Origin: a virus
Taxonomy: Duplodnaviria; Heunggongvirae; Uroviricota; Caudoviricetes
Strand: one strand, 5' to 3'
IMG/VR virus record: IMGVR_UViG_2571042636_000008
Location: 1-43,701 of that record
DNA length: 43,701 nt
The translations under genes were made by a program, and so were the position numbers. Shown in pieces: positions 21,394 through 39,934 of this stretch (positions are counted from its first letter, which is position 1; each line of letters begins with the position of its first letter). The notes under the pieces were generated by a model. It did no database searches. It was given only the letters and a program-made list of their open reading frames with translations, and was not told where the DNA came from.

Positions 21394-21630
21394 ATACCTG
21401 GAAATAACCGTTTCACGCAAAATTCACGCTATTCATTTTTCGACCCTGTTTATGCATGTTTTATTCACGCGCTTTTAGCCACTTAACCCCGATAAATAAG
21501 CCTTTGGCGGACATTTCATCATGGGAGGGATCCGGCTGGTGCGGGTAACAGTCATTATGTTAAGTCGGGTCGTTTTTTAACAAATTATCCTATCCGCCAC
21601 GAGTACCGAAAAAGCCGGAGAATAGTCACC

Positions 21631-23082: not shown

Positions 23083-23686
23083 GAGCATTGCTAAATCGCT
23101 TGTTGACTACTCCGGGGTGATCGACGACTGGGCCGAAATGGTCGGTCGAAAGATGTTTGCCCAGGTGGAGCGTGAAGAGTGGAATCAGTGGCGCTCTGTT
23201 TCGGAAGAAATATCCGCTGGTCTGCGTGACGTGATTAGTAACACTCCTGTCGGCATGGTGGCACAAGACACCGTTTACCGGCAGATTCGCTATATGAAAT
23301 CTCTGCCATTAGAGGCGGCCGGACGTGTCAGGGAGATTCAGGAGCGTGCGATAAAGGCTGTCATCCATGGTGAGCGTCCAGATCAGCTTTACGAGATGAT
23401 CATGCAATCCGGTGACGTGGCGGCCAGCAGGGCGCGGATGATAGCCCGCACTGAGATAGGCCGCGCCACTACCGCATTAACTCAGGCTCGGGCACTGTCA
23501 GTTGGTTCTGAGGGGTACTGGTGGCGCATCAAGGGGGCTGGTACCAGGCCATCGCACCGAGGAATGAAAGATAAATTTGTGCGCTGGGATAACCCGCCAA
23601 CGCTTGACGGCATGACCGGACACGCCGGATGCCTGCCGAACTGCGATTGCTGGCCAGAAGTGCAGATCCCTGAGTTTAGAAAATAA
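22904..23686 (+). CDS. MuF-like head morphogenesis (minor head) protein; start uncertain
   Basis: Phage_Mu_F-like C-terminus ...YWWRIKGAGTRPSHRGMKDKFVRWDNPPTLDGMTGHAGCLPNCDCWPEVQIP; the track ORF starts at GTG 22904, overlapping the portal by 179 nt; true start could be 22919/22934 or later. Confidence 0.65.
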   Translation: MLQLAMRISRMRRNSGRRLNLKPALRRRSEVQYQKSLLAIVDQINQIVTGSYDGSQASAESIAKSLVDYSGVIDDWAEMVGRKMFAQVEREEWNQWRSVSEEISAGLRDVISNTPVGMVAQDTVYRQIRYMKSLPLEAAGRVREIQERAIKAVIHGERPDQLYEMIMQSGDVAASRARMIARTEIGRATTALTQARALSVGSEGYWWRIKGAGTRPSHRGMKDKFVRWDNPPTLDGMTGHAGCLPNCDCWPEVQIPEFRK

Positions 23687-23724
23687 TGCATAATGCATTA
23701 GTAACAACTCGATAGGGATAGCAA

Positions 23725-24147
23725 ATGAAGCAAAACATACATAAGCTTAACGGGTTAGAATTCACCCATGAACGCGATTTTATCAACGGGCAATGGGTAT
23801 ATTCTTGGTATTTTAGACCCCTAGAGCAATCTGAATGGTGCCCATTCTCGCTGCCAACGGGGAAAACAAGAAAATCTGATATTGAGAATTTCTTAAAAAA
23901 TTGTGAAGAAGCTACCAAGTTCTATTTAGAGTGGTTAAGAAATGCCTCTGATGTGGAAGGTGCTGAACGCTATTTATTATCCGCAAAACAAGCTTGGGAA
24001 AGGATATCTAGCCCGGACTGGGGAGGGCGTGGAAGTAATCCAAACAAGGATGCCAGGAGGGTGCAACAAGCAAGAGAAACTCTCGAATCGGCAAAAGTAA
24101 AGCTTGAGAAAGCCAAGATATTACGAGAAAGATTAAATAGTAACTAA
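23725..24147 (+). CDS. Moron-encoded hypothetical protein (AT-rich insert between head genes)
   Basis: 140 aa; AGGGATAGCA RBS; visibly lower GC than flanks; own terminator downstream; Trp-rich N-terminus, basic helical C-terminus. Confidence 0.55.
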   Translation: MKQNIHKLNGLEFTHERDFINGQWVYSWYFRPLEQSEWCPFSLPTGKTRKSDIENFLKNCEEATKFYLEWLRNASDVEGAERYLLSAKQAWERISSPDWGGRGSNPNKDARRVQQARETLESAKVKLEKAKILRERLNSN

Positions 24148-24153
24148 CAACGA

Positions 24154-24179
24154 GGCCGCTATTCAGCGGCCTTTTCTTT
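24154..24179 (+). terminator. Rho-independent terminator after the moron gene
   Basis: GGCCGCT-attc-AGCGGCC followed by TTTTCTTT. Confidence 0.55.
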
Positions 24180-24202
24180 GCCCGCAATTCAGCAGGTAAT
24201 CC

Positions 24203-25405
24203 ATGAAATATTTCTTTAAAACCCGCCTGGGTAATACCCGCTTTCAACTTGCTGATGGGTCAGTCCTGTTTAAGGACGTCCCGATCGCAAGGACTGGTGA
24301 GCAGGAGTACGACGCCACAGAGCGGCCTGAGCTTGTCCCAAACGACAGAGGGAAAGTCATCGTACGCCGGATGCCAGAAGAGGTGTTCAGCGAGCGAGCC
24401 ATGGCGTCATTCGAAGGCATGGCAGTTACTATCGGCCATCCGCGAGATTTTGACGGGCAGATCATCTTTGTTACCCCTGACAACTGGCGCCAGCTGGCTC
24501 ACGGGCACATCCAGAACGTACGACGTGGCACGGACGATAAAACCGATCTGCTGATGGCTGATGTCATCGTTAAAACCCCGGAAGCCCTGCAGGCCATTGA
24601 TGATGGTGATGATGAGGTCAGCTGCGGGTACGACGCCGATTACGAACAAATTTCACCTGGTCTCGCAAAGCAATCTGCGATTACCGCTAACCATCTGGCC
24701 CTTGTCCCTAACGGGCGGGCCGGTTTCCGTTGTGCAATAGGGGATTCTATGCCAAGCACTACTAAAAACTGGTTTACCCGGCTCCTGAAGGCCCGTAAAA
24801 CCGGGGACGCTGCCGAAATGGCAAGTCTCATTGATAACCCGCCTGATGATGTCACGGGCGATAACGACGTATCGACCTCTATGACACCTGGCGGAGTGGT
24901 CATCAACCTTGCGCCGCAAAATCCGCTTCCCGGCCCGGCATTGCCTGGTACCGGCGATGCCGAGGAAGAAATTCCTGCATGGGGTAAGGCGCTGATTGAG
25001 GCGGTGGCCAAACTCACGCCTGCGGCAACTGCTCCTGGAACCGGCGATGCCGAGGACGAAGAGGAGAAAAAGGAAGAAGAGGGTAAGGTTACCGGCGACG
25101 CCGCTTACCGTGCCGATCTGATTCAGCCAGGCATCCAGTTGCCAGAGAAGGCGAAGCCGACAGCATTCAAGCGTCAGGTGCTCGCCTCTGCCGATCAATC
25201 TCTGGTGCGCTCTATTGTCGGTGATGCCGATATCAGCAAGCTGAAAAAAGCCACGGTAGATATGGCTTTCACGGCTGTTTCTGAGCTGGCGAAAAACCGC
25301 AATACCAAAACCGTCGACAGCCTGCAAACGCAGACTGCCACCACTGTTAAAACCATTGCCGGTATGAATCAGGCCGCGCAGGAATTCTGGTCTAAACGAG
25401 GCTAA
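24203..25405 (+). CDS. Head scaffolding/prohead-maturation protein (DUF2213-like N-terminus, acidic repeat C-terminus)
   Basis: 400 aa; acidic repeats PGTGDAEEE.../[17 protein letters not shown] typical of scaffolds; sits between MuF and capsid genes. Confidence 0.55.
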
Positions 25406-25408
25406 CCA

Positions 25409-25903
25409 ATGGGTAATACATTTCTTTACCGGATGCCAGCGGGCATCGCCGGGGCAATTTCTCGTCCGCAGGATCTGACGGTTGAACCTCAACTGCTGGA
25501 CTCCTCCAACCTTTTCCCCGCTTACGGCCTTGGCGGCAAGATTTCCTCCGGGAAATTTGTGCCAATCGCTGCGAGCGATACAGCGTCGGAGCTGGTGGGC
25601 ATTTATGTTCGTCCGTATCCGACCGCCAGCCAGCCGGATAAAGTCCAGCAGGTAGGCAGCGGTAAAAACTTCACCGGCGATTGCCTGGTACGTGGTTACG
25701 TCACGGTAAACATCGGCGCGGATGCATCAAGCGTTGCTCTGCATGGCCCGGTCTACATGCGAGTGGCCACACCATCCGCCTCAAGCCCTCTCGGCGCGTT
25801 CCTTGCCGCCGCTGATGGCTCGAATACCGTCCAGATCACTAACGCTTACTTCAATGGCCCTGGCGACACCAGCGGCAACATTGAGCTGGCCTTCAATATT
25901 TAA
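25409..25903 (+). CDS. Head structural protein (decoration or auxiliary capsid protein)
   Basis: 164-aa ORF directly upstream of major capsid gene, AACGAGG RBS. Confidence 0.5.
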   Translation: MGNTFLYRMPAGIAGAISRPQDLTVEPQLLDSSNLFPAYGLGGKISSGKFVPIAASDTASELVGIYVRPYPTASQPDKVQQVGSGKNFTGDCLVRGYVTVNIGADASSVALHGPVYMRVATPSASSPLGAFLAAADGSNTVQITNAYFNGPGDTSGNIELAFNI

Positions 25904-25914
25904 GGAAATCGCAA

Positions 25915-26856
25915 ATGCCAATGACATTTGACCAGGCGACAGTCGACGGCACTGGTGCCTTTCTTGTCCATGAGCTGGAGCGTCTCGATCAGACACTGAA
26001 TCTGCCGCTGGTGAATTTCACCTGGTCGCGCGATATCCAGTTGCGTGAAGACGTGTCTATTGCTGATGAGATCAGCTCGTTCACTAACACCACTTTTGCT
26101 GCTGCCGGTACGCCGAATGCTAACGGTAAAAACTGGCTTAGCAAAGCCGCGACCGCGATGGCTGGCCTTAACGTCGACATCGCAAAAACTGGCTTCCCGC
26201 TCACACTGTGGGGTATGGAGCTTGGCTGGACCGTTCCTGAATTGCAGGCAGCTGCGCAGGTTGGTCGCCCGATCGACACGCAGAAGTACGACGGCATGCA
26301 GCTGAAGTGGAACATGGACACGGACGAGCAGGTTTATATCGGCGATTCCGGTCTGAACGTTAAAGGCCTGCTGAACCTGACGCAGGTAACGCCGACCAAC
26401 GCCGCGAAGACCTGGGCGACCTCCACCGCTGACGAAATCCGGGCGAGCATTAATGCCGGGTTGAGTGCTGCGTGGGCCAACTCAGCTTACTCCATGGTAC
26501 CGACGGACCTGTTGATCCCGCCGGAGCAGTTCTCTCTGCTGGCAAGCACCATCGTATCCAGCGCTGGTAACCAGTCCCTGCTGACCTATCTGGAAACCAA
26601 CACCATCGCATACCACCAGAACGGGCGTCCTCTGAACATCCGTCCGGTGAAATGGGCGAAAGGTCGTGGCGTGTCGAACTCTGATCGCATGATGTTCTAC
26701 ACCAACGACAAGAAATACGTTCGCTTCCCGATGGTTCCGCTGATGAGCGTGCCGATCCAGTATCGCGGCCTGTATCAGCTCGTAACCTATTACGGCAAGC
26801 TGGGTGCAGTAGAGCCGGTTTATCCGGAAACTCTGGCCTACGTCGACGGCATCTAA
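25915..26856 (+). CDS. Major capsid protein
   Basis: 313 aa, AAGGAAA RBS, followed by strong hairpin; position and size; family (DUF2184-like) from memory. Confidence 0.7.
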   Translation: MPMTFDQATVDGTGAFLVHELERLDQTLNLPLVNFTWSRDIQLREDVSIADEISSFTNTTFAAAGTPNANGKNWLSKAATAMAGLNVDIAKTGFPLTLWGMELGWTVPELQAAAQVGRPIDTQKYDGMQLKWNMDTDEQVYIGDSGLNVKGLLNLTQVTPTNAAKTWATSTADEIRASINAGLSAAWANSAYSMVPTDLLIPPEQFSLLASTIVSSAGNQSLLTYLETNTIAYHQNGRPLNIRPVKWAKGRGVSNSDRMMFYTNDKKYVRFPMVPLMSVPIQYRGLYQLVTYYGKLGAVEPVYPETLAYVDGI

Positions 26857-26862
26857 CCTGCG

Positions 26863-26880
26863 GCGGCCCGAAAGGGCCGC
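26863..26880 (+). other. GC-rich hairpin with GAAA tetraloop after the capsid gene (RNA stability element or partial terminator)
   Basis: GCGGCCC-GAAA-GGGCCGC, no T-tract. Confidence 0.4.
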
Positions 26881-26886
26881 TCATGA

Positions 26887-28067
<1,181 letters not shown>

Positions 28068-28068
<1 letters not shown>

Positions 28069-28454
28069 TGCCGTTTCTCGATGTGACGGATGTTCTGCTT
28101 GATCCGGACTTTGTCGACCTGTCTCTGGTGTGTTATCGACAGGTGCAGACAGTGGACGAAGATAATTTTCCAACCAATACCGTGCAGGCTATTCCGTTCT
28201 CTGGTGTCGTAACCGTCGACCGTTCACTGGAAGCGAAGCGTATGGCCGCCGGACAGAACATCAACGGGGCCATTCTCATCGTGACGCAGTTCAGGCTGAC
28301 TCAGGGGCAACCCGGATTAGATGCCGATATCGTAACCTACCGCGGGCGAGATTATCGTGTGACGTTTGTCGACCCGTATACGGCGTACGGTGCCGGGTTC
28401 GTTCAGGCGCATTGCGAGCTTCTGGAATTCGACGGGGGAACGCCAATTGAGTAA
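28068..28454 (+). CDS. Head-tail joining/head closure-like protein
   Basis: 128-aa ORF, TAATG overlap. Confidence 0.5.
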
Positions 28455-28989
28455 CGACAGCACAACGGCGGGATATCTGACCCCCGTCGGTGATTCACCG
28501 CCCTACGATGAGGATCTGGAACGGCTAATCAGCCGCTGGATACGGGGTGTGACAGGGCTGGCTGCCACGCTGGTTTACCCACGCTGGACTGACCAGCAAA
28601 AGCAGATACCCAAAAACGGCACCACCTGGTGCGCGTTCGGTATCACCGGCATTCAGGAGGACTTCAACCCGGCGTACGTGCAGGGCGAAGAGAACACCGA
28701 ACAGTGGTCGCATGAGACCGTGAGCCTGATCTTGTGCTTCTATGGCCCGCAGGGGCTGGCAATGGCCACGCGCTTTCGTGACGGTCTGCTGGTCTCGCAG
28801 AACAATGACGAGCTCAACCGCTCAGGCCTGACATTTCTGCAGCATGGGCGGATCCTCAATCTGCCCGAACTCATCAATAACCAGTGGGTGCGCCGGTACG
28901 ATATCAGCGTTGACCTGCGCCGCAAAATCATCCGCCAGTACGGCATTCAATCGCTGGTCGACGCGCCAGTGCAATTTTTTGGAGATTAA
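28447..28989 (+). CDS. Tail completion/neck-like protein; non-ATG start
   Basis: No in-frame ATG near 5' end; TTG 28447 preceded by GGGGGAA chosen; the track ORF starts at TTG 28366. Confidence 0.45.
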   Translation: MSNDSTTAGYLTPVGDSPPYDEDLERLISRWIRGVTGLAATLVYPRWTDQQKQIPKNGTTWCAFGITGIQEDFNPAYVQGEENTEQWSHETVSLILCFYGPQGLAMATRFRDGLLVSQNNDELNRSGLTFLQHGRILNLPELINNQWVRRYDISVDLRRKIIRQYGIQSLVDAPVQFFGD

Positions 28990-28992
28990 AAC

Positions 28993-30138
28993 ATGGCACA
29001 GGGCTTACCTGTTTCCAATGTCGTTAACGTTGACGTCATCATGTCACCGGTAGCGGCAACGGGGCGAAACTTCGGTGCGCTCCTCATTTTGGGAACCTCT
29101 ACCGTTATTCCGGTTACCGAGCGCATTCGCCAGTATTCGGCCATTGAAGATATCGGCGATGATTTTGGCGTTGACTCCCCGGAATACGAAGCAGCGACCA
29201 TCTTCTTTTCACAATCACCAAAACCCACGCTGGTCTATATCGGCCGTTGGGCGAAGACGCTGGCGGAAGAAGAGGCCGGGACGGTGGAAACCTTGCTACA
29301 GGCCGTTAATGCCTGCCTTCAGTATACCAACTGGTACGGGCTGGCAATTGCCGACAGCGCCGATCTGGTTGAGGCTGACGTGATTTCCGTTGCTGCTGCT
29401 ATTGAGGCATCCAGCTTAAGCCGCATTCTGGCCGTTACCACTGCTGATGTGAATGTGCTGGTGGCCGGAAATACCGACAATATCGGCTACAAACTGAAAG
29501 CCGCTGGCTATGCCCGCACATTCTGGCAGTACAGTTCCAGCAGCAAATACGCCGCTATCTCGGCCTTTGGCCGCGCATTCACGGTGAATTTCACCGGCAG
29601 CAATACCACGATCACACTGAAGTTTAAAACCGAGCCTGGTATTACCTACGAGACGCTGACAACCGCACAGGCCGCAGCCATTGATGCCATTAACGGTAAC
29701 GTCTACGTCTACTACGCCAACGATACGGCAATTATCCAGCAGGGTGTGATGGCGAACGGTGATTTCTTTGATGAGCGGCATGGCCTGGACTGGCTGCAGA
29801 ACTACGTTCAGACCAATCTCTATAACCTGCTTTACACCTCGGCCACCAAAATCCCGCAGACCGACGCAGGCGTAACCCGGTTAATGACCAACGTCGAAGC
29901 CTCACTGGATCAGGCGGTAAATAACGGCCTCATTGCTCCGGGTGTCTGGAACGGTGGCCCGATTGGCCAGATTGAATCCGGGGATACCCTGACCAAGGGT
30001 TACTACGTCTACGCCGACGCGGTAGCTAACCAGGCTCAATCCGACAGGGAAGCGCGTAAGTCGCCGGTAATTCAGGCGGCGATCAAGCTGGCTGGCGCTA
30101 TTCATTATGGCGACGTGCAGATCAATGTGGTGCGATAA
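28993..30138 (+). CDS. Tail sheath protein (DUF3383-like)
   Basis: 381 aa; followed by tube, chaperone and tape measure; family from memory. Confidence 0.6.
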
Positions 30139-30147
30139 GGAGCGACC

Positions 30148-30591
30148 ATGAGCGGAACCTATAGTTTTATTGACGTCTCGGCATCCCTGACGGGCCCAAC
30201 CGGCAGTATCGATCTGGGCTGCGGCTCGGCGAACTCCGAAGAAGGTATTACGGTTGCGATGACCGAGGCAAAAAACACCATGACCGTCGGCGCCGATGGT
30301 GAGGTGATGCACAGCCTGCACGCCGGTAAGAGCGGCACTATCACGGTAACTTTGCTGAAAACCTCCCCGGTAAACAAAAAGCTCTCGCTGATGTACAACG
30401 CACAGAGCCTGTCCTCGGCGACGTGGGGCAATAACGTCATCGTCATTCGCAACAAAGTATCAGGTGATACCACTACAGCGCGTTCTTGTGCTTTCCAGAA
30501 GCAACCCGATCACGCTAACGCCAAAGTCGGCAATACGGTTTCCTGGGTCTTTGACTGCGGCAAGATTGATCAGCTGCTTGGGGAGTTTTAA
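30148..30591 (+). CDS. Tail tube protein (DUF3277-like)
   Basis: 147 aa with AAGGAG RBS, between sheath and chaperone. Confidence 0.6.
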   Translation: MSGTYSFIDVSASLTGPTGSIDLGCGSANSEEGITVAMTEAKNTMTVGADGEVMHSLHAGKSGTITVTLLKTSPVNKKLSLMYNAQSLSSATWGNNVIVIRNKVSGDTTTARSCAFQKQPDHANAKVGNTVSWVFDCGKIDQLLGEF

Positions 30592-30594
30592 CGG

Positions 30595-31014
30595 ATGGAA
30601 TTTGAAATCAAAGGGGTTAATTACCGAACCGCCAAACTTGACGTATTCCAGCAACTGAAGGTCAGCCGTAAGCTGCTGCCGGTGCTGGCCGGGCTCGTTA
30701 GTGAATTTTCCACGCTGAAAGCGCAGGCCGCTGCGGGTAACTCTGGTGCAGTGCTGGAAAGCGTACTGCCGAAAATTGCCGATACGCTGGCCGCGCTGCC
30801 GGATGAGGACGTTAACGCGGTGATTCATCCGTGCCTGGGCGTTGTTATGCGCCAGCATGAAAAAGGGTGGGTGAAAATTTTCGATCAGGGCGCGCTGATG
30901 TTCGACGATATCGACCTGTTCACGATGCTGCAGTTGGTGGCGCGGGTGGTCGCCGACAGCCTGGGAAATTTTTTGAAAGAACTCCCCGGCAGCGGGACGC
31001 CTACCCAGCCATAG
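30595..31014 (+). CDS. Tail assembly chaperone (short, zero-frame product)
   Basis: 139-aa ORF immediately upstream of tape measure gene. Confidence 0.6.
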   Translation: MEFEIKGVNYRTAKLDVFQQLKVSRKLLPVLAGLVSEFSTLKAQAAAGNSGAVLESVLPKIADTLAALPDEDVNAVIHPCLGVVMRQHEKGWVKIFDQGALMFDDIDLFTMLQLVARVVADSLGNFLKELPGSGTPTQP

Positions 31015-31208
31015 GTCCTGTCCTGGAATCCATGCAAGAAGGTGAGGATTTCCTGATGCGTCCGGTGGATGCCGGGCTTATCCCTTACACCGCCCTGAAA
31101 GATGGATCAGTAGACCTGGCTGATATTGCCCGTATGAATGACTGGCTGGACCTGAAAGCCGATAACGAAAACCGTATAGCGAAATGGAGAGAGGCTAATG
31201 AACGCTGA
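30595..31208 (+). CDS. Tail assembly chaperone, frameshift-extended product (gpGT-like)
   Basis: Joining the zero frame to the -1 frame at 30969-30975 gives about 204 aa; conserved chaperone-frameshift-tape measure synteny. Confidence 0.5.
30969..30975 (+). other. Putative -1 programmed ribosomal frameshift slippery heptamer T TTT TTG
   Basis: XXXYYYZ heptamer in zero frame near chaperone 3' end; the -1 frame stays open to 31208, ending at the tape-measure start. Confidence 0.55.
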
Positions 31209-33114
31209 AACGCTCAAGGACTTTCTGATCTCGCTTGGGTTCAAAGTTGATGAGGCTGGCGCCAGAAAATTCGATGCCGTCGTTGCCGGGACAACGCTTA
31301 AAGCGATTGAACTGGGCGTCAAAGTTGAGGCGGCGGCACTTTCCGTCGTTGCATTCACCGCGAAAATTGCCAGCGGTCTCGACGACCTGTACTGGGCCTC
31401 TCAGCGCACAGGCGCGACGGTGGAGGGCATTAAGCAGATTGGGTATGCGGTTAGTCAGGTTGGCGGCAGTGTCGACGGGGCCCGCGGCTCTCTCGAAAAT
31501 CTTGCCAGGTTCATGCGTAACAATCCCGGCGCTGAGGGTTTTCTGAACCGGCTGGGGGTTCAAACGCGTGATGCCAGCGGTAACATGCGGGATATGGCGA
31601 CGATCTTTACCGGCGTCGGCCAGCGTCTTAGCAGCATGCCGTATTACCGCGCGAACCAGTACGCTCAGATGCTGGGTCTGGATGAAAACACCCTGATGGC
31701 AATGCGTCGCGGTATCGGCCAGTTTAGTGGCGAATACACCGCGATGGCGAAGGCGATCGGCTATAACGCTGATGTGGCCGCCGTCAGCTCCAATAAATTC
31801 ATGACCTCGCTGCGCTTCTTTGGGCTGATGGCAGGCATGGCGCGGGATAAAATCGGCTCCAGTCTCGCTGATGGACTTGCTGGCTCTCTGGACAGGCTGC
31901 GTCGCCAGATCCTGGAAAACTTCCCGAAAATTGAAGGCGCTATAACCGGTACCGTGAAAGGCATTCTCTGGGCTGGCGAGATGGTAGGCAGGGTAATTTA
32001 CCGCCTTATTCAGCTGGGTCAGAGTATCAGCGACTGGTGGGACTCTCTTGATAAGCAGTCGCAGCAGCTGATCGAACTAATTGGAGCGCTAACCGCAGCG
32101 TGGTGGATGCTCAACCGCGCTATGCTCGCATCGCCGATTACGTGGGTTCTCGGTCTTGCCGCTGCCATAGCTTTGCTATGGGAGGATTACCAGACCTGGA
32201 AGGAGGGCGGTAAGAGCCTCATTGACTGGGGTAAATGGAAGCCTGAAGTAGACGCAGCACTGAAGATGGTCGGTGACCTGAAACAGACTGTCCTCGATCT
32301 AGGAAAAGCGCTGGCAAAGCTGCTCAATATCGACCCTAAATCCTGGTCTTTGAAATGGGATTTCAGCAACTTCATTACCCAGATGGGTGAGTTTAGCAAG
32401 ATGCTGAGTATGATCGGCGACCTGCTTAACGCTATCAAGGACGGTCGCTGGTCGGATGCTGCAAGCATTGGCAGGGCTCTTCTCAAACAAGGCAGTAACC
32501 AGCCTGATGCGCTGCCCGGCGTTTCTGACAGTGCCAATAGCGCAGCTGACTGGATAAAGGATAAGACAGGATTTGACCCGCGCAGCATAGGCCGTTTCTT
32601 CCGTGGCGAGGGGAATACGCTTGCAGATCGCAACAATAACCCCGGTAATATTCGGCCCGTAGGCGGTGGTGGCTTTCGTGCGTTTGGTTCTGCGCTGGAA
32701 GGCTGGGAGGCCATGAAAAACCAGCTCATGCGGTACTTTACTGGTAAAACGACCGGGCGCCGCCTGCAGACTATCATGGATATCGTCAGCACCTGGGCAC
32801 CTGCGGCCGATAACAACGATCCTGCCAAATATGCCCGTGATGTTGCTGGCTGGATGGGGGTATCGCCGACGGCAGCATTAAACCTGTCCGACCCCAATAC
32901 GATGGCTATGCTCATGCAGTCTATGGCCCGCAAAGAGGGGTATTCGAACTGGAATAGCCCGCTTGCCCATCAGGCTGCTGGAGCGCAGGTGAATCAGCAA
33001 AACACCTACAACATCTATGGCGGTAATGCTCAGGAAATTGGGCAGGAAGTCAGTCGCCGCCAGCTTGATGCTAATGCCAGGGTGCTGAGAAATAACCAAA
33101 CTGGAGCAGGATGA
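31198..33114 (+). CDS. Tail tape measure protein
   Basis: 638 aa, largest tail gene after the chaperone; helical N-terminal part with hydrophobic segment. Confidence 0.8.
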   Translation: MNAETLKDFLISLGFKVDEAGARKFDAVVAGTTLKAIELGVKVEAAALSVVAFTAKIASGLDDLYWASQRTGATVEGIKQIGYAVSQVGGSVDGARGSLENLARFMRNNPGAEGFLNRLGVQTRDASGNMRDMATIFTGVGQRLSSMPYYRANQYAQMLGLDENTLMAMRRGIGQFSGEYTAMAKAIGYNADVAAVSSNKFMTSLRFFGLMAGMARDKIGSSLADGLAGSLDRLRRQILENFPKIEGAITGTVKGILWAGEMVGRVIYRLIQLGQSISDWWDSLDKQSQQLIELIGALTAAWWMLNRAMLASPITWVLGLAAAIALLWEDYQTWKEGGKSLIDWGKWKPEVDAALKMVGDLKQTVLDLGKALAKLLNIDPKSWSLKWDFSNFITQMGEFSKMLSMIGDLLNAIKDGRWSDAASIGRALLKQGSNQPDALPGVSDSANSAADWIKDKTGFDPRSIGRFFRGEGNTLADRNNNPGNIRPVGGGGFRAFGSALEGWEAMKNQLMRYFTGKTTGRRLQTIMDIVSTWAPAADNNDPAKYARDVAGWMGVSPTAALNLSDPNTMAMLMQSMARKEGYSNWNSPLAHQAAGAQVNQQNTYNIYGGNAQEIGQEVSRRQLDANARVLRNNQTGAG

Positions 33115-33689
33115 TGGATATTCTTTCTACTCTCTTTCAGCAGCAGAGCAGGCGGATCGGGCTGATAGTCCCCAGTGTTGTTATTTCGGAAAAGCACGAT
33201 GACTCGCTTGAAATAACCGAGCATCCCGTAGAGGTCGGCGCAGCAATTTCCGACCATGCATTTCGACGTCCTTCGGAAGTGGTAATGCAGGTCGGTTTCG
33301 CTGGTGGCGGTTCCTTGCTTGACTTTGTAGATACGTCTTCTCTTGGGCTGAGCGTAGGTATTGGCCCGAAGGAGACGTATCAGGAACTGTTAAATCTGCA
33401 GAGCAGCAGGGTGCCTTTAGATGTGGTGACCGGTAAGCGGATTTACACCAATATGCTGATCCGTGCGCTTGAGGTCACTACCGACAGGACGTCGGAAAAT
33501 ATTCTCTCTGCCGTGCTGACGCTCCGGGAAGTGATTATCACAAGCACAACCACCACGCAGGTGGCTCCAAAGTCCAATATGAAGTTAGGGGCGAACACCT
33601 CAGCCGTGCAAAACTCCGGGGTGAAAACGCCAGTGCAAAAAAATGAATCAATATTGAGCCGGTTAAGTGGCTTTGTAGCGGGAGGGTAA
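33111..33689 (+). CDS. Tail/baseplate-associated protein
   Basis: 192-aa ORF, ATGA overlap with tape measure. Confidence 0.5.
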   Translation: MMDILSTLFQQQSRRIGLIVPSVVISEKHDDSLEITEHPVEVGAAISDHAFRRPSEVVMQVGFAGGGSLLDFVDTSSLGLSVGIGPKETYQELLNLQSSRVPLDVVTGKRIYTNMLIRALEVTTDRTSENILSAVLTLREVIITSTTTTQVAPKSNMKLGANTSAVQNSGVKTPVQKNESILSRLSGFVAGG

Positions 33690-33992
33690 ATGACGATCAG
33701 CGAAATCCCTCTTTCCCCGGAAAACCAGCGATTCTCCATATCTGTGGCAGGTCAAAGTCTGCAAATGGCTGTGACCTGGCGTGCTGCTTTCTGGTGTCTG
33801 GATATTATGGATAGCAGCGGTGCGGACCTGATAAAGGGGATCCCGCTTATCACCGGCGCCGACCTGCTGGCGCAGTATCGCTATCTCGGGCTTGGCTTTT
33901 CGCTTTATGTTGGCTGTGACAACCAGTCCAGCGAAAATCCCACTGAGGCCGATCTGGGGATTTACAGCCATCTTTATGCGGTAACGGAGTAA
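33690..33992 (+). CDS. Tail/baseplate-associated small protein
   Basis: 100-aa ORF with GGGAGGG RBS. Confidence 0.5.
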   Translation: MTISEIPLSPENQRFSISVAGQSLQMAVTWRAAFWCLDIMDSSGADLIKGIPLITGADLLAQYRYLGLGFSLYVGCDNQSSENPTEADLGIYSHLYAVTE

Positions 33993-33994
33993 AA

Positions 33995-35056
33995 ATGTCT
34001 CAGAACTGGATGCGGCACTTCGAATTGCAGTTAGTCGATTCGAAGGGGAACGCTACTGATTTTGGTAGCTTCAAGGTCACTTTTACTATCGACTGGTTTA
34101 ACCTCAGCAGCGAAACGCGAGTAGGTACTTTCAAAATCTATAACCTTTCAGCTGATACCGTAAACCGGATCGTCGGTGAGGAATTCTCCCGGATTAGGGT
34201 TATCGCTGGATACGATGGCATTGCAGCTGACGTTCCCGCCAGTCAGGTAGGCGTCGCCAGGACAGTAAACCCCGATGAAGTCGGGCAGATGGACAGTCGA
34301 AATTATGGGCTGATTTTCGACGGGGAAATCCGGTACACCATCACAGGGAAAGATAACCCCGTTGATAGCTTTGTCCTCATTCAGGCGGCTGATTCTGACC
34401 GGGCATTCGCTACCTCGATCACTGCGCAGACGCTGGCGGCTGGCTATACGGTCTCTGACGTCAATGCAGTGCTAATGAAGGACTTCAACGCTAACGGGGC
34501 CACGGAAGGGAATACCCCTACCATGCCTGCAACGGTGTTTCCTCGCGGCAGGGTGCTTTTTGGTATGACCCGGCATCTGATGGATAACGTCGCCGAGCAA
34601 TGCAAGGCTGACTGGATGTTTGTCGACGGCAAGCGGGAAATGGTGGCGAAAAATGAGTTTGTTCACGAAGCCATTAAACTGAACAGCGCCACCGGCCTTG
34701 TAGGTATGCCTCAGCAGACCATTGGTAGTGGCGTTAACGTCCGCTGCCTGATTAACCCTAACATCCGCGTTAATGGCCTGATCGAGCTGAATCAGGCTTC
34801 TGTATTCCGTACCGTGCTGGGAAATAACGATATCGCCATGACGCAAGGGCGTATCACTGACCAGAACAACAACGGAAACATCACCATTGAAGGCACGACT
34901 GCGCAGCCTGCCAGTATTGCGACTGACGGCGTTTATATTGTCCGTGGCATTATGTACACTGGCGACACAAGGGGCCAGGCGTGGTACATGGATATGATGT
35001 GTGAAGCGCGTGGGTCCACGGATCTTTACTCCCAAGGCGCACTTAATCGGGGATAA
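33995..35056 (+). CDS. Baseplate hub/tail protein
   Basis: 353-aa ORF in baseplate block. Confidence 0.55.
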   Translation: MSQNWMRHFELQLVDSKGNATDFGSFKVTFTIDWFNLSSETRVGTFKIYNLSADTVNRIVGEEFSRIRVIAGYDGIAADVPASQVGVARTVNPDEVGQMDSRNYGLIFDGEIRYTITGKDNPVDSFVLIQAADSDRAFATSITAQTLAAGYTVSDVNAVLMKDFNANGATEGNTPTMPATVFPRGRVLFGMTRHLMDNVAEQCKADWMFVDGKREMVAKNEFVHEAIKLNSATGLVGMPQQTIGSGVNVRCLINPNIRVNGLIELNQASVFRTVLGNNDIAMTQGRITDQNNNGNITIEGTTAQPASIATDGVYIVRGIMYTGDTRGQAWYMDMMCEARGSTDLYSQGALNRG

Positions 35057-35059
35057 AAA

Positions 35060-35398
35060 GTGAAAATCTTCACCATCGTTTTTATCGCATTCGCATCCTT
35101 TGGGGCTACCGCCGGTGGCTTCACATCATATTGTGGACCTTACACTTTAGTAGCAAGGGAAGGTGATGTAAGCATTATCAATGGAGAGCGAGTCACCTCT
35201 CAGAAAATAAAATTATTGGGGGAGGACGGCATCAAGATAAACATGGGGATGATGCCTGCCAAAGACGGCAACAACTACGGCTTTCAGTACATCCACCGTC
35301 CTGGTAGTGAATCTCGCTTTCTGAACGTCCAGCTTCTGCAAAACAGCATGGATGCGCCGAAGATTATCGGATCCTTCCCCTGCGTCAAGGTGAAGTGA
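35060..35398 (+). CDS. Moron: small secreted (periplasmic) protein
   Basis: GTG start with GGGGA RBS; signal-peptide-like N-terminus MKIFTIVFIAFASFGATAGG; two Cys; AT-rich relative to flanking baseplate genes. Confidence 0.55.
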   Translation: MKIFTIVFIAFASFGATAGGFTSYCGPYTLVAREGDVSIINGERVTSQKIKLLGEDGIKINMGMMPAKDGNNYGFQYIHRPGSESRFLNVQLLQNSMDAPKIIGSFPCVKVK

Positions 35399-35400
35399 TT

Positions 35401-35847
35401 ATGGAATTTTTCGCAATTATCCTCTTCTTTTTGGCAATAGCCATTGTTACTAGATGGAATAACCATAAGAAAGCTAAAAAGCGGAAAGAAGAAGATAACT
35501 TTATCCATAGTATTGATTATTCTTATCGTCGTCCTGAGGTTAAATCTAAGCCTAAAAATGGTCGTAGAAGAAGCAAGGAGGAAATGCTTGCTGATGGAAT
35601 CGCATATCAAAAATTGATGGGTGATGATTTTAGAAAGTCAGCAAAAGCTACGCAAATCCAGGCGGAAAGAGTCGGATCTAAGAAATATATTTGGCGTGGT
35701 TCTGATTGCTGCCCAAATTGCGATAAGCAGAATGGGAAAACATTCTCTTGGGCAAGACCTCCAAAAACAGGTCACCCAGGAGAAGGAAAATTATGTCCTA
35801 ACGGTTACTGTCGCTGTTGGGCTGAGGTGATAATTCCGAAACCGTAA
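35401..35847 (+). CDS. Moron: membrane-anchored protein with MuF-C-terminal-like Cys/His motif
   Basis: N-terminal TM helix EFFAIILFFLAIAIV; basic linker; C-terminus YIWRGSDCCPNCD...KTFSWARPPKTGHPGEGKLCPNGYCRCWAEVIIP parallels the MuF C-terminus at 22904..23686; strongly AT-rich; terminator follows. Confidence 0.55.
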   Translation: MEFFAIILFFLAIAIVTRWNNHKKAKKRKEEDNFIHSIDYSYRRPEVKSKPKNGRRRSKEEMLADGIAYQKLMGDDFRKSAKATQIQAERVGSKKYIWRGSDCCPNCDKQNGKTFSWARPPKTGHPGEGKLCPNGYCRCWAEVIIPKP

Positions 35848-35868
35848 GGCATTACAAAATTCTATAAA

Positions 35869-35891
35869 AAGCCCACCCATGTGGGTTTTTT
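35869..35891 (+). terminator. Rho-independent terminator after the moron cassette
   Basis: CCCAC-ccat-GTGGG followed by TTTTTT. Confidence 0.55.
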
Positions 35892-35909
35892 ATTGCCTGG
35901 AGTAAGGTA

Positions 35910-36563
35910 ATGGCAATATCCGATAAAACCCGCAGTGGGGCGCTTGCTGAGGTTCTGGCGTCAGAGAGAAGGACGCTCAACGAACAACTTCGCGTTGCAA
36001 TGCCCGGCATCATCCAGTCTTTTGATCCTGACGCAGTGACCGCCGTGGTGCAGCCGGCGATCCGCTACATCGAGCGCGATAACGACGGCAACAAATTAAC
36101 GAATGATTATCCACTGCTGGTAGATGTTCCTGTCGTTTTCCCTCGCGGCGGAGGCTGCACACTGACTTTTCCTGTTAAGGCTGGTGATGAATGCCTTGTT
36201 ATCTTTGCGGACCGCTGTATTGATTTCTGGTGGCAGAGTGGGGGTATTCAGGAGCCGGTAGACGAGCGCATGCATGATTTATCCGATGCCTTCTGCATTG
36301 TCGGCCCGCAGTCGCAGGCGAAGAAAATCGGCGGTATCAGCACCAGTGCGGTAGAGCTGCGCAGTGATGACGGGGAAACAAAGTTGAGCCTTAATCCTGC
36401 CAGTGGAGCTATCAACGGCACGGCGCCGGGAGGTTTTAACCTGAACGGGCTTAAAATTCTCTCGGACGGCCGCCTGCAACTGGTGGATGGCTCAATCGTT
36501 GATAAGCATACGCATGGTGGCGTTGAGCCTGGTGGCAGCAGTACAGCACCACTCGGAGGATGA
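35910..36563 (+). CDS. Baseplate central spike protein (gpV/Gp138-like)
   Basis: 217 aa, Gly-rich C-terminus with HTHGG; GGAGTAAGG RBS. Confidence 0.6.
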   Translation: MAISDKTRSGALAEVLASERRTLNEQLRVAMPGIIQSFDPDAVTAVVQPAIRYIERDNDGNKLTNDYPLLVDVPVVFPRGGGCTLTFPVKAGDECLVIFADRCIDFWWQSGGIQEPVDERMHDLSDAFCIVGPQSQAKKIGGISTSAVELRSDDGETKLSLNPASGAINGTAPGGFNLNGLKILSDGRLQLVDGSIVDKHTHGGVEPGGSSTAPLGG

Positions 36564-36564
36564 T

Positions 36565-36918
36565 ATGCGATACCGTCGAGAAGATGACGATGGGGATTAC
36601 ACCTTCGGTCAGGGCGATGATACCTGGCTGGTTAACTCACCCGAGGCTGTAGCGCAGGCCATTAAAACGCGCTTCCTGCTCTGGTACGGTCAGTGGTTTC
36701 TGGACACCACAGAAGGTACGCCATGGATTCAGTCCGTTCTGGGTAAGCAAAAACCGGATACCTACAACCTCGCTATCCGTAAGCGGATCCTCGAAACGCA
36801 GGGGGTTAGCTCAATCACTGCATTTAACACCACCGTTGACGGTACCACGCGCCGTGTAACGTTCACAGCAACGGTGGAAACCATCTACGGGACAACCACA
36901 GTAACTTCGGAGGCGTAA
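36565..36918 (+). CDS. Baseplate protein (gpW/gp25-like)
   Basis: Start ATG 36565 (MRYRREDDDGDYTFGQG...), about 117 aa, between spike and J-like genes. Confidence 0.5.
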   Translation: MRYRREDDDGDYTFGQGDDTWLVNSPEAVAQAIKTRFLLWYGQWFLDTTEGTPWIQSVLGKQKPDTYNLAIRKRILETQGVSSITAFNTTVDGTTRRVTFTATVETIYGTTTVTSEA

Positions 36919-38114
36919 TGGCTCTGGACCTCGACACACTCGGCTTATCGGCAACGGTAACCGCTGAGGGGATAAGTGCGCCTGATTATCAGACGATACT
37001 CAGCACCCTGATTAGCTATTTTCAGCAGATTTATGGCAGTGATGCCTATCTCGACCCGGACAGCAAAGACGGCCAGATGGTCGCTCTGGTGGCTCTGGCC
37101 ATTCATGATGCCAACAACACGGCTATTTCTGTTTACCGGTCATTTTCTCCGTCGACGGCGCTGGACGATGCATTAACCAGTAACGTCAAAATTAACGGCA
37201 TCGCTCGCCGGGCTGCGACAAATTCTACGGTCGATGAGCTGATCGAAGGTGAGGCCGGAACGTTAATCACAAACGGCTCTGTGAAAGATGCCAACGGCAT
37301 CATCTGGAATCTTCCTGCTCAGGTGACAATTGGTATTGATGGGACGGTTATTGCTACAGCGACGTGTTCTGTTGCTGGCGCTGTGGCGGCCCCTGCCGGG
37401 TCAGTCAATAAGATAAACACCCCGACACGTGGCTGGGTATCAGTAACTAACCCTCAAGCGGCTACCGTTGGCGTTGCTGCCGAAACAAATGCTGAATTGC
37501 GTGTCCGGCAATCACAGAGCGTTGCTTTACCATCTCTGACGCCGTTTGAGGCGGTAGATGGTGCGATAGCAAATATCAGCGGCGTAACCCGTCACAAGCT
37601 GTATGAGAACGATACAGATACCACTGATGCAAATGGCCTGCCGCCGCACTCAATCGCCGCCATTGTAGAAGGTGGTGATGCGACGGTCATTGCAAACAGC
37701 ATTCGTGGTGTGAAAGGGCAGGGCGTAACACCCTACGGTAGTACGGTGATTGTTGTGCCTGATAAGTACGGAAACCCTCACCCGGTAGGTTTTTCAAGGC
37801 CGGTCGATGTACCCATTTACGTCAAAATCACTATCGAACCCCTTACGGGCTACACATCCCAGGTCGGCGAAGAGATAAAGGCGGCTGTATCTGCCTACAT
37901 TAACTCACTGGCAATCGGCGCCAGCGTTCTTCTCAGTCGCGTTTACTCACCGGCTAACCTTGGTGTTGTCAGTGGTGGTAATGCCAGGTATTACGACATT
38001 ACCGAGTTGCTGATCGGGACGTCCGCCGGTGGCGTAGCCGCGGCAAACGTGGATATTGCCTTTGACCAGTCAGCATCCTGCGCCGTCAGCAATATTAATC
38101 TGGTGGTCTCATGA
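36918..38114 (+). CDS. Baseplate J-like protein
   Basis: 398-aa ORF, size and position typical of gpJ/gp6-like wedge proteins. Confidence 0.65.
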   Translation: MALDLDTLGLSATVTAEGISAPDYQTILSTLISYFQQIYGSDAYLDPDSKDGQMVALVALAIHDANNTAISVYRSFSPSTALDDALTSNVKINGIARRAATNSTVDELIEGEAGTLITNGSVKDANGIIWNLPAQVTIGIDGTVIATATCSVAGAVAAPAGSVNKINTPTRGWVSVTNPQAATVGVAAETNAELRVRQSQSVALPSLTPFEAVDGAIANISGVTRHKLYENDTDTTDANGLPPHSIAAIVEGGDATVIANSIRGVKGQGVTPYGSTVIVVPDKYGNPHPVGFSRPVDVPIYVKITIEPLTGYTSQVGEEIKAAVSAYINSLAIGASVLLSRVYSPANLGVVSGGNARYYDITELLIGTSAGGVAAANVDIAFDQSASCAVSNINLVVS

Positions 38115-38884
38115 GCAGATACACTGACCGCATAACAAACTACCACGCCGGTAAACCAAAGTTCTTTGCCCACGTCGACCTGTCCACCAGGCCACTGAGT
38201 GATGTTTCCGATGCCATGTCACGGCTAATACCCGATTTTGATATTGATACCGCCATTGGCGTGCAGCTTGACGTTGTGGGCGAATGGGTTGGTCGTTCCC
38301 GTCGCGTGGCTACACCGGTAACCGGGATTTATTTTTCGTGGGACACCGAGCGGGTTGGCTGGGACCAGGGGATTTGGCAGGGCCCATATGACCCAAACGA
38401 TGGGTTTATCGATCTCAGTGATGAAATATATCGGCTAATGCTGAAGGTGAAAGTGGCGATAAACAACTGGGATGGTCAGAACGATTCGCTTCCTTCAATT
38501 CTTGATGCCGCCCTTGCCGGGTCCGGGATCCGCATGACTATTGTCGACAATCAGGATATGTCGATTTCCATCTGGATACTCGGTGACCCATCGGTATCCC
38601 TAAGTGAAATAGACCGGTTAATTCTGGATAGCGCCGTCAATAAAGGCCCCTTTATCGCATTACCGGCAGGTTACGTACCATCGCGCTATGACATTAACCC
38701 GATTGACCAGGTTAACAGCGAGCTATGGTGGGCGATTCAAAACGGTTATATGACGGTTAAGGCCGCCGGAGTTCGTGTCCGTGAAATAGAGACCGTCAGT
38801 AATGGTTATCAGTTTTTTGGCTTCGATATCGAAAATGACTATATCGCTGGTTTCGACCGCGGGTCATGGGGAGAGAGATTTTAA
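38111..38884 (+). CDS. Baseplate/tail-fibre-associated protein (DUF2612-like)
   Basis: 257-aa ORF, ATGA overlap, precedes fibre gene. Confidence 0.5.
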   Translation: MSRYTDRITNYHAGKPKFFAHVDLSTRPLSDVSDAMSRLIPDFDIDTAIGVQLDVVGEWVGRSRRVATPVTGIYFSWDTERVGWDQGIWQGPYDPNDGFIDLSDEIYRLMLKVKVAINNWDGQNDSLPSILDAALAGSGIRMTIVDNQDMSISIWILGDPSVSLSEIDRLILDSAVNKGPFIALPAGYVPSRYDINPIDQVNSELWWAIQNGYMTVKAAGVRVREIETVSNGYQFFGFDIENDYIAGFDRGSWGERF

Positions 38885-39765
38885 TGGCGACTAACGATTT
38901 TAAGCCCTTCGCTACAGGTAGCGGGGCAAACGTATTATCACAAGCTGATTATGATGCACTGTCGGCCAGAACAACTGGCTTTTTAAGTGGCAAAGCCTCT
39001 TCGGCACAGGTCAACAAAGCTTTAAGGCAGGCATCAACTATTGCGGCGGTTGTGGCGCAGTTTATTTCTGATAACAGCGGCGATGACACCCTTGATAATG
39101 GTAATTTGCCTACCTTGCTGGCCAGTCTCGAAAGCGCCCTTCTCAAGTCCTCCCCTGGGCGGTTACAGAATATCGTTAGCTTTACCGCAAATGGGACCTA
39201 CACCCCATCTCCAGGAACCAAACATGTAAAAGTTATTGTTACTGGCGGTGGTGGTGGCGGGGGTGGTTGTCAGGGAACTTCCGGAGCTGAATCAATTTCA
39301 GGTGGTGGTGGCGGTGCTGGCGGTACGGCCATTGGTTATTTTGCCGTTACTGAATCCAGCTACGCAGTCACTGTAGGTGCTGGTGGTTCTGCTGGCGTTG
39401 GTGCTGTGCAGGGTGGAACAGGCGGAACCTCAATCATTAACGGCATTAGCGGATTGGGCGGAGATGGTGGTCAGAAATCAGGGATCACTACGCTGGCTGG
39501 TGGGAAAGGCGGTGTTTCTATTGGTGGCTCGGTTAACCTTCCCGGAGGTTACGGTACTGATGGGCAAAATGGCTCTCTGATTATCCCCGGCAATGGCGGA
39601 TCATCATATTGGGGCGGCGGTGGTCGTGGGGGCGCACGCGGGGGCGTGGCAGGGGATTGTTATGGTGCCGGTGGTGGTGGTGCATATGATGCTGCCATGT
39701 CTGGTAACTCCTACAATGGCGGACAGGGGAAAGCAGGGATTGTATATATTGAGGAATATTCTTAA
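38884..39765 (+). CDS. Glycine-rich tail fibre protein
   Basis: Conserved fibre-like N-terminus MATNDFKPFATGSGANVLSQADYDAL...; C-terminal Gly-rich repeats (GGGGGGG, GGxGG). Confidence 0.65.
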   Translation: MATNDFKPFATGSGANVLSQADYDALSARTTGFLSGKASSAQVNKALRQASTIAAVVAQFISDNSGDDTLDNGNLPTLLASLESALLKSSPGRLQNIVSFTANGTYTPSPGTKHVKVIVTGGGGGGGGCQGTSGAESISGGGGGAGGTAIGYFAVTESSYAVTVGAGGSAGVGAVQGGTGGTSIINGISGLGGDGGQKSGITTLAGGKGGVSIGGSVNLPGGYGTDGQNGSLIIPGNGGSSYWGGGGRGGARGGVAGDCYGAGGGGAYDAAMSGNSYNGGQGKAGIVYIEEYS

Positions 39766-39934
39766 TGGTAAGCAAATATGCAGTCCTGAAAGATGGCGTG
39801 GTAGAAAACATTATTGTTGCTGATGATAATTACTCTCCTGATGATTTCGAAGTCGTAAAATATAGTGACGAAACATTTTGCCAGCCAGGCATGTTGTACA
39901 ATAAAGAGGATGGTTTATTTTATGATGATAAATA
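39764..39934 (+). CDS. Small acidic ORF (56 aa) coupled to the fibre gene, possible fibre assembly factor
   Basis: ATG overlaps previous stop (TAATG); MVSKYAVLKDGVVENIIVADDNYSPDDFEVVKYSDETFCQPGMLYNKEDGLFYDDK; AT-rich; terminator follows. Confidence 0.35.

Follow-up and report, generated by a model that had tools for sequence, protein, structure and literature searches.

T5 Llp, the Cor proteins of phi80 and N15, and T4 Sp are exclusion proteins of the periplasm or outer membrane whose genes adjoin the tail genes that they neutralize. HK97 gene 15 and lambda lom are classic morons of tail operons, and the inner-membrane product of HK97 gene 15 prevents the entry of phage genomes in a way that depends on the tail (Cumby et al. 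2012; PMC3594210). Fixed hotspots for accessory genes have been described in P2 and P4 (PMC9122126), and in the Pseudomonas phage JBD26 a small accessory gene of the late structural operon acts on virion proteins of competitors (Tab/anti-Tab, PMC10884400). Here we analyze positions 35060–35891 of the viral sequence IMGVR_UViG_2571042636_000008 (43,701 nt in its whole length, hereafter "the window"), where two open reading frames, ORF1 and ORF2, lie on the same strand between a baseplate hub gene and a spike gene. The original prediction, which placed both frames correctly, regarded them as a single AT-rich moron with its own terminator, inserted in the baseplate module and encoding an envelope-targeted pair of proteins. 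Its argument that such genes are normally absent from structural modules goes too far in view of HK97 gene 15 and lambda lom.

Our analysis identifies one real moron in this interval, ORF2, beside a core but variable gene, ORF1; the observation is therefore partly confirmed and its interpretation partly supported. On balance, we favor the view that the interval holds two separate things, a core, variable, exported protein (ORF1) and the imported cargo of a gene slot (ORF2), both of which serve phage competition. We infer that the two products act in phage-phage competition at the envelope and not as parts of the virion. The window is a lambdoid Escherichia coli prophage, 100% identical to that of SCU-308 (NZ_CP053281), with cI/cro/cII, nin genes, a Q antiterminator, lambda-type lysis genes and an IntS integrase adjoining tRNA-Arg; its virion module is contractile-tailed and of the SEN34 (Brunovirus)/Klebsiella phage Mulock type. 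The genes are ordered as follows: tape measure, Dit-like protein, Pam3-gp18-like plug, E217-gp41-like hub, ORF1, ORF2, spike, sheath initiator, baseplate J. The features discussed below are:

33995..35056, + strand: baseplate hub gene, E217 gp41-like (Pfam PF22759, phrog_196)
35060..35398, + strand: ORF1, 112 aa, predicted to be exported, core and polymorphic (phrog_3443)
35401..35847, + strand: ORF2, a 148-aa "mini-MuF", rare AT-rich cargo (partial match to PF04233; phrog_324)
35864..35893, + strand: intrinsic terminator hairpin, AAAAAGCCCAC-CCAT-GTGGGTTTTTT followed by a T-run, which closes the cargo slot
35910..36563, + strand: membrane-puncturing spike gene, right border of the slot (PF18352, spike N-domain, 5.8e-45, and an Apex motif)

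The two genes differ in composition. ORF2 has a GC content of 0.396 and a GC content at third codon positions (GC3) of 0.322, the lowest among 29 late-operon genes, against a GC3 of 0.56–0.60 in its flanks, whereas the GC3 of ORF1 (0.575) is a mid-range value for the structural and late genes (0.51–0.72; n=27 other late genes). The GC and codon-usage check proposed with the original prediction thus argues against an AT-rich two-gene cassette, as only ORF2 and the spacer are AT-rich. Comparison with relatives gave ratios of nonsynonymous to synonymous substitution rates (dN/dS) of 0.04–0.06 for ORF2 (at dS 0.6–1.7), 0.13 for ORF1 and 0.12 for the hub, which indicates that ORF1 and ORF2 are both real, conserved genes under purifying selection. 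Of 5,426 complete E. coli genomes, 279 have a member of the ORF1 family, 312 have the hub-spike backbone and only 3 have ORF2. To judge from composition and distribution, ORF2 is the sole foreign gene of the interval and ORF1 a core gene of the lineage with native composition.

ORF1 belongs to phrog_3443, a family of unknown function whose members (358 and 255 clusters at 90% identity) are confined to Enterobacterales and are named "putative secreted protein" in a few sources. A homolog directly follows the hub gene in Mulock, SEN34, YP3, vB_EcoM-683R1 and other E. coli prophages, and also in 41 genomes of Photorhabdus, Serratia, Yersinia, Pantoea and others; the spacing between hub and ORF1 is 0–30 nt in most of about 55 loci, and in the window ORF1 starts 3 nt past the hub stop codon. 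Its presence behind the hub in nearly all relatives contradicts the idea that the pair was inserted in the baseplate module. These comparisons identify ORF1 as a fixed member of the hub-spike module in SEN34/Mulock-type lambdoid myophages of Enterobacterales. More distant E217-type loci (L011, L075 and L076) have no ORF1, which makes it look like an old acquisition that became fixed in the enterobacterial lineage. In the virion structure of Pseudomonas phage E217, for which 19 proteins were built with gp41 as the hub and gp43 as the tail tip, the product of the intervening gene, gp42, is not mentioned (PMC10329688); phages with tails of the E217 type may therefore often have a non-structural gene at the hub-spike junction.

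ORF2 starts 2 nt past the ORF1 stop codon, with its ribosome-binding site within the last ORF1 codons (we set the start at ATG 35401, as in RefSeq; GTG 35395 is likewise open). Outside E. coli we found it in Mulock and in a small number of prophages of Klebsiella and Enterobacter. It is missing from ST361/AZ147-type prophages, SEN34, YP3 and 683R1, where other genes occupy its place, and its distribution points to horizontally acquired cargo of the slot between ORF1 and the spike gene. Moreover, ORF2 is 98–100% identical among prophages whose ORF1 sequences are only 57–62% identical, from which it follows that the two genes reassort independently, contrary to the notion of a single functional cassette. 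The term moron, in the Juhala/Hendrix sense (PMC3594210), thus fits ORF2, which is extra DNA with deviant GC content and a terminator, though with no promoter found, but it does not fit ORF1, present in nearly all relatives.

The distance between ORF1 and the spike gene, which is kept in all compared loci, ranges from 1 nt to 4.1 kb. Cargo is present in 48 loci (gap 0.07–4.1 kb) and comprises 35 mutually unrelated protein clusters; the slot is always AT-richer than its flanks (GC 0.36–0.48 vs 0.44–0.58). Pfam searches identified Phd/Doc, a YafO toxin pair and a HigBA-like pair, as well as a membrane-anchored Mrr-type nuclease (Mrr_cat with a transmembrane segment), T5orf172/MUG113, a secreted OB-fold protein and DUF4236, and the slot also holds an insertion sequence (IS) and genes for numerous orphan proteins, membrane-bound or secreted. 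In five loci without cargo the hub, ORF1 and spike genes are packed together, with 1–3 nt between ORF1 and spike and no spacer. Such an arrangement, conserved core flanks around many unrelated gene contents, is that of a fixed-position hotspot, and the comparison shows that this lambdoid, Q-antiterminated late operon has a true slot for accessory genes at the site.

The terminator of the original prediction does exist: the hairpin at 35864–35893 folds with -19.9 kcal/mol (z = -2.8) and lies 16 nt ahead of the ribosome-binding site of the spike gene. However, it is not peculiar to this pair, as an intrinsic terminator is found within the last 80 nt before the spike gene in 45 of the 48 cargo-bearing loci whatever their cargo, often with identical sequence behind differing cargo. 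Lambdoid late operons are transcribed by a Q-modified, terminator-resistant polymerase. Since the phage has a Q antiterminator, the slot terminators would matter only for Q-independent transcription, and their retention only together with cargo suggests that the cargo is also read by the ordinary polymerase, outside late growth. The promoter search upstream of 35060 suggested with the original prediction was unsuccessful: on the + strand we found no site matching the sigma-70 consensus at 9/12 or more positions in 33000–37000 or in 19900–39800, a scan that could miss a weak or non-canonical promoter, and a single weak 8/12 sigma-70-like site at 34932. A promoter scan of L075 revealed nothing informative, and an Rfam scan of 33000–37500 returned only chance matches below threshold.

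The N-terminus of ORF1 consists of MK, 14 hydrophobic residues and the sequence A-T-A/GG, with predicted cleavage at about residue 18. A basic N-terminus, a hydrophobic stretch and an A/S-x-A/S site are present in all 30 aligned homologs and a lipobox (L-x-x-C) in none, in good agreement with the small signal-peptide protein proposed originally; judged by rule (hydropathy and the residues at -3/-1), ORF1 has the features of a Sec/signal peptidase I (SPase I) substrate without a lipobox. In the 30-member alignment Cys25 and Cys108 are invariant, and there are conserved blocks such as MGLMP..DGNNYGF and LNVQLLQ..MDAP.IIGSFPC. The mature protein has about 90 aa, and its AlphaFold2 (AF2) model is all-beta with 7 strands (mean predicted local distance difference test score, pLDDT, 79.6). 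Thus, ORF1 is probably a small Sec-exported beta protein with a disulfide bond. As virions assemble in the cytoplasm, exported proteins of this disulfide type are unlikely to be structural parts. A Foldseek search of the model against PDB and BFVD returned only weak matches to small beta-barrel or lipoprotein-like structures (best E = 6e-3, TM-score 0.54), which we did not use, and the family profiles of ORF1 and ORF2 had no match among PDB sequences at E <= 1.

ORF1 is also the most variable part of its neighborhood. Three viral contigs are 94–100% identical to the window on both sides, but only 40–76% identical in positions 35000–35350, i.e. in the last ~18 hub codons and in ORF1 up to about residue 97; in the same contigs ORF2, the terminator and the spike gene stay ~100% identical. 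We distinguish at least five ORF1 allele classes across ~55 loci, each paired with its own type of hub tail (the last ~14 residues), in hubs that are otherwise 55–97% identical. In these alignments no other segment of the module is as polymorphic as ORF1, which is exchanged as a cassette with the end of the hub gene; the co-variation may reflect either functional coupling or plain linkage over less than 60 nt. In a prophage of Serratia aquatilis (L047; NZ_CP173186, 4458–9346) seven tandem ORF1 paralogs fill the space from hub to spike. This array comprises two sequence subtypes, one of its copies is truncated, and an IS256-like transposase gene interrupts it. Cassette exchange and tandem amplification make ORF1 resemble specificity or immunity genes and not assembly factors. 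The C-terminal, cell-wall-directed parts of the tape-measure proteins also differ among the loci, with SLT in L155 (1683–3731) and Phage_lysozyme2 in L076 (7311–9482); the tape measure of the window (31198–33114) has an unassigned region containing NNNPGNIRP. Such parts are possible periplasmic targets of an exported inhibitor like ORF1.

ORF2 agrees with the earlier description of a single-pass membrane protein with a basic linker: it has one hydrophobic segment (residues 3–17, Kyte-Doolittle 3.05; transmembrane helix predicted at 3–19) and 31 Lys and Arg residues in 148 aa. The helix is followed by a K/R-rich linker, the motif KPKNGRRRSKEE, a long helix and a Cys/His-rich end with the pattern W..G..C..C..NGK.F.W..PP.TGHPGEG..C.NG.CRC. 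This architecture is kept in 18 relatives down to 36% identity, with C104, C107, H125, C132, C137 and C139 invariant. The AF2 model (pLDDT 87) contains helices 2–37 and 59–91 and small strands; a Foldseek search of it against PDB gave nothing under E = 3. With two residues before the helix and a dense positive cluster after it, the positive-inside rule would place the bulk of ORF2 in the cytoplasm, which would also suit its zinc-type Cys cluster, and we predict an N-out/C-in single-pass protein of the inner membrane. Both products are therefore predicted to reach the envelope, as originally proposed, but the folded domain of ORF2 is predicted to face the cytoplasm. We also considered ORF2 as a holin and rejected this possibility, because the match to PF09682 (E = 0.1) is confined to the transmembrane helix and the lysis cassette lies elsewhere.

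The "Cys4-like" C-terminus of the original prediction is indeed rich in Cys and His, but instead of an anonymous zinc finger we found a recognizable MuF/SPP1 gp7 core. ORF2 matches positions 51–109 of the 112 in PF04233 (E = 1.2e-3; 20 bits, under the cutoff of 29.6), scores 16.5 with TIGR01641 (cutoff 39.65), and matches phrog_324 at 2e-9. Its relatives P0025, P0024 and P0021 score above the PF04233 cutoff (45.3, 38.1 and 31.9 bits), and tblastn searches with ORF2 match head-morphogenesis genes of ~40 phages. These profile matches assign ORF2 to the MuF/SPP1 gp7 superfamily as a partial domain, the C-terminal half; the N-terminal half of the MuF protein resident in the same prophage has no counterpart in ORF2. 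Nor is ORF2 adjacent to the portal gene, from which it lies 12 kb away, the corresponding place being taken by the canonical gene:

21631-23082: portal gene, directly 5' of the resident MuF gene (PF06381)
23138..23686, + strand: resident canonical short MuF head-morphogenesis gene (PF04233 at 2.2e-12)

Phages that carry ORF2 and phages that do not share the same resident MuF protein, which has 37% identity with ORF2 over 73 aa and no CxxC pair; in view of this low identity and the different Cys pattern we rejected a recent duplication of the resident gene. Sequence comparison thus shows that ORF2 is neither a recent duplicate nor a replacement of the resident MuF; the resident gene represents the paralogous family from which the ORF2 domain derives, and for ORF2 and its small relatives we use the term mini-MuF.

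When 1.8 billion representative proteins were scanned in full, 247 mini-MuF clusters were found at E <= 1e-3, 57 of them at E <= 1e-10. More than 100 of the 247 have 110–200 aa and match ORF2 from the basic motif, for which P(R/K)(R/K)RGRT.EE is recurrent, to the end. An N-terminal transmembrane helix is found in 28 of 128 small mini-MuFs, and many others start with an amphipathic MxWLxRLF-like sequence. The mini-MuF gene is AT-richer than its flanks in high-GC hosts too. Every mini-MuF gene that we found with long flanks (X below) is located in a tail-tip module of the E217/Pam3 type, at one of four junctions and on either strand:

hub-ORF1-X-spike: the window type, L009, L062, L065, L077 and L155
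ORF1 3' end-X-spike: L008, in a contig that begins inside ORF1, with the hub out of view
Dit-195aa-X-plug: L011
plug-X-hub: L075, X on the opposite strand
tape measure-X-hub: L076, X on the opposite strand

Several representatives are on contigs too short for context, and in a locus search with a narrower mini-MuF alignment 58 of the 64 returned genes were canonical MuF genes. ORFs of 223 and 90 aa beside the mini-MuF gene of L076 were considered as partners and rejected, as they look like spurious high-GC ORFs. According to published surveys, which do not mention membrane-anchored or tail-module forms, 85–87% of muf genes are near portal or terminase genes (PMC5576092, PMC5512222).

For envelope-bound products such as those predicted here superinfection exclusion is a reasonable hypothesis. 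MuF proteins are thought to exit the capsid together with the DNA. Tethered to the inner membrane on its cytoplasmic side, ORF2 would mimic the MuF protein that enters with incoming DNA, and would jam or mis-dock the tail-tip/tape-measure channel of a superinfecting phage with the same type of tail. Such exclusion at the inner membrane, analogous to that by HK97 gp15, is our tentative proposal for ORF2, favored because of its MuF ancestry, its membrane tether and the recurrent link to tail-tip genes. For ORF1 we consider it possible, and slightly more so than the mechanism suggested for ORF2, that it acts in the periplasm, where it would bind the incoming tail tip at an allele-specific part. 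A broader and more doubtful extension is that mini-MuFs form an undescribed class of exclusion proteins: descended from the head protein that exits the capsid with the DNA, and brought to the cytoplasmic side of the inner membrane by an amphipathic or transmembrane helix, they would block genome delivery by contractile tails of the E217/Pam3 type, with ORF1 as a polymorphic periplasmic specificity factor matched to the hub tail and the whole junction as a self/non-self locus.

Several observations weigh against a role of the two genes in competition. Scans of ORF1, ORF2 and four other cargo proteins with PADLOC and NCBIfam gave no match, and Foldseek searches (PDB, BFVD) gave no informative fold match, with all E > 1e-3. 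Export and topology were called by rule, with hydropathy, the positive-inside rule and the residues at -3/-1 as the basis. With no promoter found and with translational coupling to the late operon, ORF1 and ORF2 are perhaps made only late in the lytic cycle, and plain physical linkage would suffice to explain the co-variation of ORF1 with the hub tail. The association of mini-MuFs with tail modules is based on ~10 contexts, mostly related by descent and only three of them clearly independent, and a distant mini-MuF with an amphipathic N-terminus is found near an argS-like gene (DALR domain) in the 2-kb metagenome contigs L072/L073, with no visible phage. Finally, MuF is known as a portal-associated head protein, and a head-directed role of ORF2 would be equally natural (PMC5576092, PMC5512222).

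The alternative that survives best, though we regard it as rather unlikely, is that the two genes have a part in the lytic cycle of the phage itself, are made late only and have no role in the lysogen; they could possibly shield infected cells or progeny from wasteful adsorption or ejection, or act in tail-tip maturation, genome delivery or lysis timing. Tight packing and coupling in a Q-dependent late operon, where the scan detected no promoter of their own, would fit this explanation, as would the fact that Mulock, an isolate with virulent behavior, and all relatives have kept ORF1. It accounts poorly for the sporadic occurrence and foreign composition of ORF2, for the location of some mini-MuFs opposite to the late-operon strand, and for a slot terminator that is found only with cargo and would be pointless in antiterminated late transcription. 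Exported proteins of the disulfide type would also be unable to join virions assembled in the cytoplasm, and the amplification and allele swapping of ORF1 resemble those of conflict genes and not of assembly factors.

Somewhat less probable, but the main rival as far as ORF2 is concerned, is interference with head assembly, in which a membrane-tethered MuF mimic would bind the portal, either of competitors or as a sensor. Portals could then be sequestered at the membrane, or the helices could cluster on the portal 12-mer and depolarize the cell, with assembly interference or abortive infection as the outcome. The only recognizable domain of ORF2 is after all MuF, whose best-studied member binds the portal (PMC5576092), its slot also carries toxin-antitoxin and nuclease genes, and prophage proteins that block assembly are known (Tab/Tai; PMC10884400, PMC11364771). 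However, genes of the ORF2 type never adjoin portal or terminase genes and recur instead in tail-tip modules, the product of a late-operon gene would meet the portal of its own prophage as well, and ORF2 keeps only the C-terminal half of MuF.

We assign a still lower probability to the original idea in its full form, namely one imported two-gene moron in which periplasmic ORF1 and its membrane partner ORF2 make up an envelope-spanning exclusion system. The genes are adjacent, on the same strand, translationally coupled and followed by a single terminator; in 12 of 12 enterobacterial ORF2 loci ORF2 begins 2–3 nt past ORF1, and an ORF1 that ends with FPCVKVK tends to be common to the loci with ORF2. 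Nevertheless, ORF1 has native GC3 and occurs without ORF2 in hundreds of relatives and without any cargo in five loci, the same ORF2 accompanies divergent ORF1 alleles, and the mini-MuFs of L011, L075 and L076 have no ORF1 homolog at all. The last alternative, that ORF2 is a decaying, functionless fragment of a duplicated head-morphogenesis gene, as its partial match below the curated cutoff could suggest, is effectively refuted by the low dN/dS reported above, by an architecture conserved among members of 36–93% identity with 25 invariant positions, by the more than 100 clusters of similar small proteins, and by the distance from the resident MuF, whose missing CxxC pair ORF2 retains.

Elsewhere in the prophage, tRNA-Asn and tRNA-Thr genes (17563–17718; RefSeq annotation) directly follow the gene of the Q antiterminator and precede the lysis cassette. 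The DnaB-like replicative helicase (~11340–13733) is annotated in RefSeq as three pseudogene pieces; a prophage with such a broken helicase may be unable to replicate by itself. The late operon contains a second AT-rich extra gene (23725–24147, 140 aa, GC 0.409, GC3 0.383), located between the resident MuF gene and a DUF2213 head gene and missing at this place in phage Mulock. Its product matched no Pfam family above threshold, and the terminator that follows it (24152–24173) is the strongest on the + strand of the operon.

If both genes indeed take part in phage competition, the hub-spike junction would be a compact and easily recognized slot that could be mined for toxin-antitoxin and anti-phage genes in the same way as the P2/P4 hotspots; the hub-spike backbone is present in ~5% of complete E. 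coli genomes and in many of Klebsiella and Salmonella. ORF1 would represent a widespread exported family for which allele exchange and amplification suggest a determinant of competition specificity. ORF2 would be a case of a MuF head domain re-used in a membrane-tethered accessory protein, which would also bear on the role of MuF during genome ejection. Prophage genes of this kind could account for gaps in host range met in phage therapy with phages of this tail type against Klebsiella or E. coli.

Among the known systems, Tab/anti-Tab of JBD26 shares with this locus a small accessory gene in the late structural operon; its late-operon-coupled partner gene overlaps the preceding structural gene, and ORF1 and ORF2 are likewise coupled. 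There is no homology, the Tab gene lies between the terminase genes on the opposite strand with its own promoter, and the protein is cytoplasmic and blocks tail assembly (PMC10884400). ORF1 resembles the Llp/Cor/Sp class in being small, exported, encoded beside tail-tip genes and variable together with the adjacent segment of a tail protein; unlike Llp and Cor it lacks a lipobox and hence is not a lipoprotein, and it has no detectable similarity to any named family. The slot is like the P2/P4 hotspots (PMC9122126) in its fixed site between core genes and its diverse, AT-rich, unrelated cargo that includes toxin-antitoxin and nuclease genes. It differs from them in its location inside the baseplate operon and not by cos, in the size of its cargo (0.4–4 kb), and in that none of six scanned cargo proteins matches PADLOC models.

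ORF2 resembles MuF/SPP1 gp7 proteins in its last 70–95 residues, which align with the core W..D..C..C...G..F.W..PP...H....C.C. Canonical MuF proteins are soluble head components, usually of more than 180 aa, with a full domain and a gene that follows that of the portal, whereas ORF2 has a membrane anchor, a basic RRRS/T-EE motif, half a domain and a place in the tail-tip module. With HK97 gene 15 it shares a small size, a position in a lambdoid tail operon near tail-tip and tape-measure genes, deviant composition, a terminator and a (predicted) single-pass inner-membrane product. The exclusion by HK97 depends on the tail region of the incoming phage, and for ORF2 only the anatomy matches. HK97 gene 15 has its own promoter and proven prophage expression, as opposed to ORF2, for which the consensus scan found no promoter; a relationship in sequence is not expected, as HK97 gp15 is YebO-like, whereas ORF2 has a MuF-derived cytoplasmic domain of ~100 aa. 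Tail-operon morons and prophage cargo hotspots as such are already known kinds of elements. New here are the hotspot between hub/ORF1 and spike, the polymorphic family of exported ORF1 proteins, and the family of membrane-targeted half-MuF proteins tied to tail-tip modules.

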